Positions 18,180-20,030 of a stretch of DNA of 22,551 nt are shown piece by piece. Position 1 is the first letter of the stretch; every line of letters starts with the position of its first letter. This DNA comes from a virus (Duplodnaviria > Heunggongvirae > Uroviricota > Caudoviricetes). A program made the position numbers and the translations under genes. The stretch lies in IMG/VR virus record IMGVR_UViG_2534681934_000013; one strand, given 5' to 3'. The notes below the pieces were generated by a model. That model was not told the DNA's origin. It saw nothing but the letters and a program-made list of their open reading frames with translations, and searched no databases.

Positions 18180-20030
18180 ATGTCGATTAAACATTATGAT
18201 GTTGTCAGGGCGGCGTCGCCGTCAGACCTTGCGGAAAAGCTGACACACAAACTGAAAGAGGGCTGGCAGCCGTTTGGTAGTCCGGTGGCCATAACCCCTT
18301 ATACCCTGATGCAGGCGATTACAGCAGAAGGTGATGTGGTGGTCAGTGGTGCAACTGAGCCGGATTGGTACTACGTCATCGTACTGGCCGGGCAGTCCAA
18401 TGCCATGGCTTACGGTGAAGGGCTTCCGCTGCCGGATTCATACGATGCTCCGGATCCGCGCATTAAACAGCTGGCGCGCCGCAGTACAGTGACGCCGGGT
18501 GGGGCTGCCTGCAGATATAACGATATTATTCCGGCCGACCACTGCCTGCATGATGTGCAGGATATGAGTACGCTGAATCATCCGAAGGCAGACCTGAGCA
18601 AAGGGCAGTACGGCTGTGTCGGCCAGGGGTTACATATTGCCAAAAAACTGCTCCCGTATATCCCGAATAACGCGGGGATCCTGCTGGTACCATGCTGTCG
18701 TGGTGGTTCGGCATTTACCCAGGGCGCGGAGGGGATATTCAGCGAGTCCACGGGGGCCAGCCAGGATTCGGCGCGCTGGGGTGTGGGTAAACCGTTATAT
18801 CAGGACCTGATTGCGCGCACCAAAGCTGCATTACAGAAGAACCCGAAAAATGTGTTGCTGGCGGTGTGCTGGATGCAGGGAGAGTTTGACATGAGCGCCG
18901 CCACCCACGCACAGCAACCTGCGCTGTTTACAGCCATGCTGACACAGTTTCGTGCTGACCTCTCCGTGTTTAACGCGCAGTGCCATGGTGGCAGTGCTGC
19001 AGATGTGCCGTGGATTTGTGGTGACACGACGTATTACTGGAAAAATACATACGCTACCCAGTACGACACCGTGTACGGCGGGTATAAAAACAGGGAGAGT
19101 GAGGGCGTTTATTTTGTGCCCTTCATGACAGACGGTAACGGCGTCAATACCGCCACTAACGCGCCGGCAGAAGATCCGGATATTCCGGCATCAGGATATT
19201 ACGGTGCGGCATCGAGAACGAATGGAAACCAGGTATCATCAAACCGCCCGACACATTTCAGTTCATGGGCGCGCAGGAGCATTATTCCGGATCGTCTGGC
19301 AACCGCTATTCTGAACGCAGCCGGGCGCACCTCAGCCTTCATCAGTGGTAAGGCACCGGAAATCAAACCCTCGCCCGGCGGCAACACGCCATCGGGTCCG
19401 TCTGCAGATACGTCCGTTCGCACAATCTCCCTGCTGCCGGCAGCCGGAGAGGCTGCTGCGCAGGGCTGGAGCATTAAGGATGGCGGAATTCAGTTGTCAG
19501 ATGGTGTATTTAAGATCACCAGGCAGAGCAATAAAACCTGGTCCCTGACGCATCCGGTGGATGACGCAATTACCCTGCTGACACAGGGCGGCAGACTGAC
19601 CTGTAAGTTCCGCCTGTCAGGCGCACTGACCAACAATCAGTTCGGGCTGGGGATTTATCTGTATACGGATGCTCCCGTTCCTGATGGTGTGGCGATGACG
19701 GGTACCGGTAATCCGTTCCTGATGTCGTACTTCACTCAGACCACTGACGGCAGAGTGAATCTGATGCATCACAGGAAAGCCGGAAACACGAAGCTGGGGG
19801 AGTTCGGCGATTACGGTAACGACTGGCAGACGCTGGAGCTGGTGTTCACCGCCGGCAGTGCCACGGTTACTCCGAAACTGAATGGAGTGGCTGGCCCGGC
19901 ATTCCAGGTTATAAAAGACAGTCTGACACTGGGACTGAATGCGCTGACGCTGACGGATGTTACAAAAAATGCAGCGTATGGCGTTGAGATAGAAAGTCTG
20001 ATGCTGGAGATAAATGCACCGGCAGCATAA
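18180..20030 (+). CDS. nanS: NanS-p-like prophage sialate O-acetylesterase (N-terminal DUF1737-like, SGNH/SASA esterase core, C-terminal lectin-like region)
   Basis: 616 aa; esterase block VIVLAGQSNAMAYG (the GQSN motif of the SASA family); large size and position between the tRNAs and the lysis cassette match the gene downstream of stx in Stx phages. Confidence 0.7.
   Translation: MSIKHYDVVRAASPSDLAEKLTHKLKEGWQPFGSPVAITPYTLMQAITAEGDVVVSGATEPDWYYVIVLAGQSNAMAYGEGLPLPDSYDAPDPRIKQLARRSTVTPGGAACRYNDIIPADHCLHDVQDMSTLNHPKADLSKGQYGCVGQGLHIAKKLLPYIPNNAGILLVPCCRGGSAFTQGAEGIFSESTGASQDSARWGVGKPLYQDLIARTKAALQKNPKNVLLAVCWMQGEFDMSAATHAQQPALFTAMLTQFRADLSVFNAQCHGGSAADVPWICGDTTYYWKNTYATQYDTVYGGYKNRESEGVYFVPFMTDGNGVNTATNAPAEDPDIPASGYYGAASRTNGNQVSSNRPTHFSSWARRSIIPDRLATAILNAAGRTSAFISGKAPEIKPSPGGNTPSGPSADTSVRTISLLPAAGEAAAQGWSIKDGGIQLSDGVFKITRQSNKTWSLTHPVDDAITLLTQGGRLTCKFRLSGALTNNQFGLGIYLYTDAPVPDGVAMTGTGNPFLMSYFTQTTDGRVNLMHHRKAGNTKLGEFGDYGNDWQTLELVFTAGSATVTPKLNGVAGPAFQVIKDSLTLGLNALTLTDVTKNAAYGVEIESLMLEINAPAA

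Follow-up and report, generated by a model that had tools for sequence, protein, structure and literature searches.

A predicted prophage sialate O-acetylesterase, NanS-p, encoded in a lambdoid late region without adjacent stx genes

We analyzed a 22,551-nucleotide stretch of viral DNA (Caudoviricetes; IMG/VR record IMGVR_UViG_2534681934_000013), referred to here as the window, and within it the open reading frame (ORF) at positions 18180 to 20030. This ORF is very probably nanS-p, the gene for a prophage-encoded sialate 9-O-acetylesterase, in the allele carried by the lambdoid prophage Sp11 of Escherichia coli O157:H7 Sakai, which is not a Shiga toxin (Stx) prophage, and by its counterpart in strain EDL933. 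Its product has the same sequence (100% identity) as Sakai ECs_2189, which lies inside the feature annotated as “prophage Sp11, lambda-like phage”, and as WP_000023184.1 of EDL933 (EDL933_RS10035), which is encoded in the second member of a tandem pair of lambdoid prophages beside ompW. We take this EDL933 prophage to be the CP-933O region. By exact look-up, the same protein is present on 318 contigs, and its cluster has 13211 members. The agreement extends beyond the gene, with positions 15500-22551 of the window being approximately 99.8% identical to a prophage found in many E. coli O157:H7 chromosomes.

A first-pass annotation of this DNA, made from the sequence alone, had described a 616-amino acid (aa) protein of the NanS-p type, with a GQSN esterase motif and a long C-terminal region. 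This description was borne out. The frame at 18180-20030 is intact, starts with ATG, and spans 1851 nt, with GQSN at residues 71-74. The C-terminal region consists of a linker rich in Pro, Ser, and Gly (approximately residues 380-420) followed by a beta-sandwich domain of about 195 aa. The features of the gene are listed below with the evidence for each.

18168..18172, plus strand: Shine-Dalgarno-like GGGAG, 8 nt before the nanS-p ATG (sequence letters)
18180..20030, plus strand: nanS-p coding sequence (CDS), 616 aa (ORF list; identity to the Sakai and EDL933 proteins)
18189..18329, plus strand: DUF1737 domain, aa 4-50 (Pfam PF08410, E 2e-15)
18354..19316, plus strand: esterase domain of SGNH type II (SASA), aa 59-379, a homologue of NanS/YjhS (PDB 3pt5, Pfam, Foldseek)
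18396..18398, plus strand: codon for Ser73, the predicted nucleophile in GQSNA, equivalent to NanS Ser19 (motif, 30 homologues)
19254..19256, plus strand: codon for His359, the predicted general base in R-P-T-H-F-S, equivalent to NanS His301 (motif, 30 homologues)
19317..19439, plus strand: Pro/Ser/Gly-rich interdomain linker, aa 380-420 (translation; AlphaFold predicted local distance difference test, pLDDT, below 50 at 384-411)
19440..20018, plus strand: lectin-like beta-sandwich domain (DUF6645), aa 421-613, a putative carbohydrate-binding module (PDB 6yp6, Foldseek, Pfam)

Several independent searches place the protein among the NanS-p enzymes. Three Pfam domains, each exceeding its curated cut-off, follow one another as DUF1737 (residues 4-50), SASA (residues 66-262, E 1e-12), and DUF6645 (residues 467-577, E 4.6e-18). 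DUF1737 and SASA followed by a C-terminal extension is the architecture given for NanS-p (PMC10462455). The SASA match also settles, in favor of the esterase, the check for a SASA/SGNH profile hit that had been proposed for this gene. PHROG 143 matches the protein from end to end (E 0), and a scan against NCBIfam gave no match. In a search of PDB sequences, residues 59-379 matched NanS/YjhS of E. coli O157:H7 (3pt5) at E 9.4e-122, and residues 421-613 matched the NanS-p C-terminal domain from phage phi24B (vb_24B_21; 6yp6) at E 2.5e-29 with phmmer. Given the E-values from Pfam, PDB, and PHROG, a chance match is excluded.

The predicted structure points the same way. An AlphaFold2 model built from a 30-sequence alignment had a mean pLDDT of 67, being good in the C-terminal domain and below 50 in the active-site loops; it was consequently used for the C-terminal domain and as a Foldseek sanity check only, and not for catalytic geometry. 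Foldseek ranked 3pt5 and 6yp6 as its top two matches, with the C-terminal domain superposing on 6yp6 at E 5e-22, a TM score of 0.84, and a root-mean-square deviation of 2.1 Å (model region at pLDDT of about 80-90). The next match of this domain was the sialic-acid-binding lectin domain of the Vibrio cholerae sialidase (2w68, E 8e-9), which fits the published view of the NanS-p C-terminal domain as a carbohydrate-binding module (PMC10462455, PMC8065619). The N-terminal DUF1737 domain was less informative, and neither search made with it gave a clue to its role: residues 1-60, used as the query of a word-indexed search, brought up nothing but fragments from E. coli and Shigella, and when 1.84 billion representatives were searched exhaustively with phmmer, 71 matched. 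In the 10 most distant of these relatives, Pfam found DUF1737 alone, in tandem, or joined to SASA.

The catalytic residues support the assignment in a form specific to NanS. Chromosomal NanS has the sequence blocks 17-GQSNA-21, 120-RGGSAF-125, 178-MQGEFD-183, and R-x-S-H-F-S at 298-303 (PMC10792757). Its catalysis relies on Ser19 and His301, as backed by mutagenesis, without a canonical Asp, and its oxyanion hole is formed by Gln18 and a Gly (PMC9063846; PMC10017367). The window protein has GQSNA at 71, RGGSAF at 174, MQGEFD at 232, and R-P-T-H-F-S at 356-361, with Gln72 as the counterpart of the oxyanion residue Gln18 and Gly175 as a further oxyanion-hole residue. In an alignment with 30 full-length homologues, which share 58-91% identity with the window protein, residues G71, Q72, S73, N74, R174, G175, Q233, G234, E235, D237, R356, H359, F360, and S361 are invariant in all 30. 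The first-pass annotation had held that the esterase reading would fall if the catalytic Ser, His, and Asp were not all conserved. The Ser and His stood, as Ser73 and His359, and the Asp did not, the residue three positions before His359 being Arg356 rather than the Asp of the canonical SGNH triad (DxxH). However, because NanS itself lacks this Asp, the test was mis-specified and should be read as one for Ser and His. The missing Asp argues against a canonical triad and not against membership in the NanS branch.

The genomic position is also that of a nanS-p gene, in a lambdoid late region 3' of a Q-type antiterminator gene and tRNA genes and 5' of the lysis genes. The neighboring features include small RNA (sRNA) elements on both sides of the esterase gene, of which the upstream one is listed here.

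14984..15550, plus strand: Q-type late antiterminator gene, DUF1133/Phage_antitermQ (Pfam; “phage antiterminator” ECs_2193 in Sakai)
16107..16820, plus strand: AraC-family regulator gene, 237 aa (Pfam, annotation; “phage regulatory protein” ECs_2191 in Sakai)
16849..17101, plus strand: tRNA-Ile2 (CAT) at 16849-16924 and tRNA-Arg (TCT) at 17025-17101 (ARAGORN, Rfam)
17271..17866, plus strand: TerB-family (TciA-like) and DUF3927 (TciB-like) genes (Pfam, RefSeq annotation)
17871..18043, plus strand: STnc100-family sRNA element directly 5' of nanS-p (Rfam RF02076, E 3e-22; 104.7 bits, gathering score 47)
20031..20474, plus strand: 444-bp spacer between nanS-p and the holin gene, with a strong terminator hairpin at 20393-20419 (blastn, fold)
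20475..21612, plus strand: lysis genes, comprising a P21-type pinholin gene at 20475-20681, YdfR/DUF1327, and a SAR-endolysin lysozyme gene at 21080-21612 (Pfam)

In a Stx-converting late region, stxA and stxB lie between the tRNA genes and nanS-p; here, that place is taken by the TerB and DUF3927 genes. It had been proposed from the sequence that the esterase has no stx operon next to it, and this holds. When the 22.5-kb window was searched for Stx1A/B and Stx2A/B by tblastn and for both operons by blastn, no match was better than E 0.28, and no toxin gene is present in the RefSeq annotation of the 99.8%-identical loci. We considered whether a remnant of stx persists between the tRNAs and the esterase and rejected this, none having appeared in the blast searches. 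All 10 of the distinct contexts in which the exact protein was found likewise lack stx.

The broader claim, that the esterase is independent of the toxin genes, is upheld by its close relatives, some of which lie beside stx and some of which do not. In the Stx1a phages (YYZ-2008 gp42; LC567831 “yjhS”), the esterase likewise has 616 aa, with 98.7-98.9% identity to the window protein. After it come, in the same order, the spacer and the pinholin, YdfR, endolysin, and Ant genes (in the window, Ant likewise comes after the SAR endolysin), with DNA that is 98-99.6% identical, the spacer being 99.6% identical to that of YYZ-2008 by blastn. The difference lies upstream, where stx1AB directly precedes the esterase in the Stx1a phages; high DNA homology to the window starts only 13 bp before the esterase ATG, and two short conserved patches lie inside an STnc100-like element. 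The classical lambdoid phage 434 (OL657226.1, CPT_434_71) is free of stx and encodes a 616-aa SASA esterase that is 97.2% identical to the window protein. As in the window, a DUF3927 gene (named “TciB” in phage 434) precedes the esterase, and a 98.9%-identical spacer and then the pinholin gene follow it. However, the antiterminator of phage 434 is of the Q82 type, its upstream region contains other small membrane-protein genes, and it lacks the TerB gene, the AraC-type regulator, and the tRNA genes. A prophage of uropathogenic ST131 is likewise stx-free, with an esterase 86% identical to the window protein.

A further comparison is with the NanS-p proteins of enterohemorrhagic E. coli (EHEC) prophages, including L0105/z1466 of phage 933W (NanS-p1), vb_24B_21 of phi24B, and the alleles of EDL933 and O104:H4. 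These share with the window protein the DUF1737-SASA-DUF6645 architecture, the catalytic blocks, and the location after the stx/moron slot and before the holin gene, and EDL933 and Sakai encode the exact protein. The 933W NanS-p1, the first NanS-p to be characterized, is only about 53% identical overall, with 645 aa against 616 in the window, and it has stx2AB upstream where the window has TerB and DUF3927. The tRNA genes of the window correspond to the ileZ-argN-argO block upstream of stx2 in 933W, with 87% identity. Across these closely related esterases, then, the upstream slot holds stx1AB, stx2AB, TerB with DUF3927, DUF3927 with IraM, or small membrane-protein genes. Because stx1AB in the Stx1a phages and stx2AB in 933W occupy the slot of TerB/DUF3927, stx and TerB/DUF3927 are alternative cargoes in one slot, 5' of a conserved esterase-plus-lysis block. 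On this reading, the esterase travels as one block with the lysis genes and the sRNA elements on its two sides, and stx is one of several alternative upstream cargoes. Separately, we observed that the first member of the EDL933 tandem prophage pair beside ompW has a 617-aa NanS-p allele of its own (WP_000143067.1; NZ_CP008957.1 1859884-1861737) that is 97.6% identical to the window protein; a DNA methyltransferase gene and the tRNA pair, without stx, come before this gene.

Sialate O-acetylesterases outside of phages provide a second point of comparison. Chromosomal NanS (YjhS, 3pt5) resembles the window protein in being an SGNH type II enzyme with a Ser/His pair without Asp and a Gln/Gly oxyanion hole. 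The two are approximately 56% identical over 320 residues, and the substrate of NanS is 5-N-acetyl-9-O-acetylneuraminic acid (Neu5,9Ac2). NanS differs, however, in being a single-domain protein of about 326 aa, lacking both the DUF1737 and the lectin-like domains, and it is encoded in the sialic-acid-inducible nanCMS operon rather than by a phage. The EstA of Bacteroides, the SAE of Phocaeicola vulgatus, and the NanS of Tannerella forsythia carry out the same reaction, unmasking O-acetylated mucus sialic acids (PMC9063846; PMC10017367). Unlike the window protein, they are SGNH type I enzymes with a full Ser-His-Asp triad and an oxyanion-hole Asn (PMC9063846). They are not prophage genes, and they gave no sequence match in the PDB search.

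For the family, the function of such a gene is well documented. The NanS-p enzymes deacetylate sialic acids on mucin glycans, and seven EDL933 alleles (ten in the re-sequenced genome) together with five O104:H4 alleles gave active esterases (PMC8065619). According to reviews, the active esterases include those encoded by EDL933 and O104:H4 prophages that are not Stx prophages, and these alleles allow growth on Neu5,9Ac2 (PMC10462455, PMC8065619). In the passages of these two articles that cite Saile et al. 2016/2018, NanS-p of phages without stx are described as active and as conferring a growth advantage. Multiple nanS-p alleles contribute additively (PMC10462455, PMC8065619). By extension from this family literature, the window enzyme would hydrolyze the O-acetyl ester of Neu5,9Ac2, whether free or on mucin glycans, and the product N-acetylneuraminic acid would be taken up through NanT and catabolized, giving the lysogen a growth advantage. 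Neu5,9Ac2 itself is not accepted by NanT (PMC10017367), and the deacetylation must therefore take place outside of the cytoplasm.

How the enzyme gets there may follow from where its gene lies. The Q-type gene is presumed to control the late transcript, which would include nanS-p, a gene placed between the tRNA/moron slot and the pinholin gene. With this position, nanS-p would be induced together with the lysis genes, the Q-modified polymerase presumably reading through terminator-like hairpins at 17114-17133, 18068-18086, and 20393-20419. In Stx2a lysogens, nanS-p transcripts increase by 1-2.4 logs upon treatment with mitomycin C (PMC10462455). We found no signal peptide or membrane segment in the window protein, the maximum Kyte-Doolittle 15-residue mean within residues 1-60 being 0.95. 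Release by lysis is consequently the most likely route, and the esterase would be set free when a fraction of the lysogens lyse.

Some observations weigh against this picture. The endolysin frame is broken in the window, which is possibly a sequencing error but bears on the proposed release by lysis. The AlphaFold model has low confidence in the active-site loops and is silent on catalytic geometry. We did not find a convincing sigma-70 promoter directly 5' of nanS-p, nor did we locate the pR' promoter belonging to this Q type, and the transcription route is consequently drawn from position and from the Stx2a phage data. Terminator-like hairpins flank the gene at 18068-18086, after the STnc100 element and with a T-run, and at 20393-20419, and expression of nanS-p without Q may therefore be low.

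It could also be that the phage, and not the nutrition of its host, is what the esterase serves. Produced alongside the lysis proteins and binding glycans by means of its lectin-like domain, it would deacetylate O-acetylated surface sugars (O-antigen, capsule, or sialylated debris and mucus), and so help the progeny to reach their receptors or to avoid trapping; growth on Neu5,9Ac2 would then be a by-product. We regard this as unlikely, although several features are compatible with it. The gene lies directly 5' of the pinholin and endolysin genes in all contexts examined (933W, the Stx1a phages, 434, ST131, and the O157 prophages), it is kept in the fully functional phage 434, and its product has a carbohydrate-binding-type domain and no export signal, so release would occur only at lysis. 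However, the esterase appears to be dispensable for lambdoid growth, since phage lambda is not known to have such a gene. A role for the phage was raised as an open question in PMC8065619, but the published growth and mucin-deacetylation data fit nutrition (PMC10462455, PMC8065619), and we found no report of virion association or an effect on adsorption in the literature consulted. The two roles are not mutually exclusive.

A related proposal starts from the RNA elements on either side of the gene. The STnc100-family match, which belongs to Hfq-binding prophage sRNAs, lies in the 313-bp gap before nanS-p, and related sequence is found upstream of the esterase in 933W (3' of stx2B), in phage 434, in the ST131 prophage, and in the other EDL933 prophage. 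On the other side, the 444-bp spacer has a stable terminator at its end (fold z = -2.9). In YYZ-2008, this spacer carries the sRNA gene pasA, of which the 84-nt mature form is cut from a longer transcript, and fewer than 3% of chromosomal pasA copies adjoin stx (bioRxiv 10.64898/2026.05.13.724894). PasA may derive from the 3' untranslated region (UTR) of nanS-p. It is conceivable, if doubtful, that an sRNA of the STnc100/PasD family, nanS-p, and PasA form a conserved three-part cassette, with nanS-p as its only protein-coding part rather than a cargo gene on its own, that moves among lambdoid phages with the lysis genes, with PasA cut from the nanS-p 3' UTR and the esterase coupled to Hfq-dependent riboregulation of host genes; the main role of the enzyme could also be phage release or spread in mucus instead of feeding the host.

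The remaining alternatives fare considerably worse. One is that nanS-p contributes nothing, being left over in a prophage that is decaying and cannot be induced, and is intact only by chance, with chromosomal nanS and approximately 7-10 other nanS-p copies sufficing for the cell. The window shows signs of prophage decay or rearrangement, including a 14.2-kb deletion that fuses two tandem prophages; the endolysin and ydfR frames are broken in the window, and redundancy is high, with 9-15 matching places per O157 genome. However, the 1851-nt frame is itself intact and its protein is identical on 318 contigs, every catalytic residue and many structural ones stay invariant in homologues down to 58% identity, which argues for purifying selection, and the additive contributions of multiple alleles (PMC10462455, PMC8065619) speak against the other copies being enough. 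The indels of the window sit in homopolymer runs and look like sequencing errors. We consider the relic explanation very improbable. Just as remote is the idea that the true substrate is another O-acetylated glycan, with a divergent C-terminal domain setting the specificity and the name NanS-p being approximate: overall identity to the 933W NanS-p1 is only about 53%, the C-terminal domain is 33% identical to 6yp6, and this domain is highly variable in the family, with subtype differences in activity or binding an open point (PMC10462455), but the distance of the catalytic domain from true NanS (E 9e-122) is smaller than that between many members of the family, the best structural match of the C-terminal domain outside of the family is the sialic-acid-binding lectin domain 2w68, and all tested EDL933 alleles, from a strain that encodes the exact protein, were active on Neu5,9Ac2 (PMC8065619).

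Other features of the window are of interest for the prophage rather than for the esterase. On the opposite strand within 18180-20030, the ORF list holds no frame longer than 91 aa. A real antisense gene was rejected, with only short ORFs and a 143-nt frameshifted fragment in RefSeq over the start of nanS-p to speak for it. A small ORF lies between the Q-type antiterminator gene and the AraC-type regulator gene, and the latter may encode one of the prophage-encoded AraC-like regulators of O157:H7. Between tRNA-Ile2 and tRNA-Arg, at approximately 16932-17012 on the plus strand, is a remnant of argN with conserved ends and a diverged anticodon-arm region; a third functional tRNA was rejected here, as the sequence is degenerate and is called by neither ARAGORN nor Rfam. 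The TerB-family gene at this locus is named “TciA/TerB-like” in Sakai. Further upstream, in the early region of the prophage (12382-12556 on the plus strand), is a hok/sok-type toxin-antitoxin locus (Rfam sok antitoxin RNA, 113.5 bits), and a Hok/Gef family CDS is annotated at the equivalent place in reference genomes. A CI/LexA-like repressor ORF at 6816-7454 on the minus strand encodes 212 aa in the window, whereas the annotation of Sakai, EDL933, and H6437 gives the corresponding gene only 339 nt (112 aa).

The window as a whole had no single-piece match among complete RefSeq genomes. Positions 1-6721 carry tail genes of the neighboring tandem prophage, from the tape measure gene to a partial J, with a deletion from L to J. 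At the junction 6721/6722, this tail module is fused straight to an early region of the Sp11 type. Compared with EDL933, 14.2 kb are missing there, comprising the J C-terminus, lom, a tail fiber gene, nleG7, insertion sequence (IS) elements, dinI, int and recE remnants, and dicB. Within the tape measure gene, the alignment to EDL933 breaks at 2211-2356 on the plus strand, where the window has approximately 144 bp and the reference pieces overlap by 17 bp, which suggests a difference in repeat number. At the other end of the window, single-base indels at 21182 and at 20688-20698, the start of ydfR, leave the SAR-endolysin gene as two ORFs and ydfR truncated. The indels in 15180-22551 sit mostly in runs of A or G and are absent from every reference genome compared; on these two grounds, they are probably sequencing errors rather than marks of real pseudogenes.

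The gene is widespread. Among 5426 complete E. coli genomes, megablast found nanS-p matches at 7761 places in 2184 genomes, with 9-15 places in each O157 genome, and a full-length relative (at least 80% of the gene in one place) in 1391. By the same means, 602 genomes had stx2 (743 places) and 348 had stx1 (359 places). Because 1391 exceeds the stx1 and stx2 sets together even if these do not overlap, at least 441 genomes carry a full-length relative without megablast-detectable stx; this is a rough lower bound, and megablast may miss divergent stx2 subtypes.

That nanS-p can occur independently of the toxin is correct but is already established rather than a new insight, since the activity of non-Stx nanS-p and its effect on growth are in the literature for EDL933 and O104:H4, and the arrangement is visible in public annotation. 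With these precedents, the Sp11 locus is a confirmed example of a known association. Through NanS-p, EHEC and other E. coli can use O-acetylated sialic acids from colonic mucus, and the prophage copies add up in doing so. A copy in a toxin-free prophage means that this trait spreads with the lambdoid late and lysis block, and not with stx.

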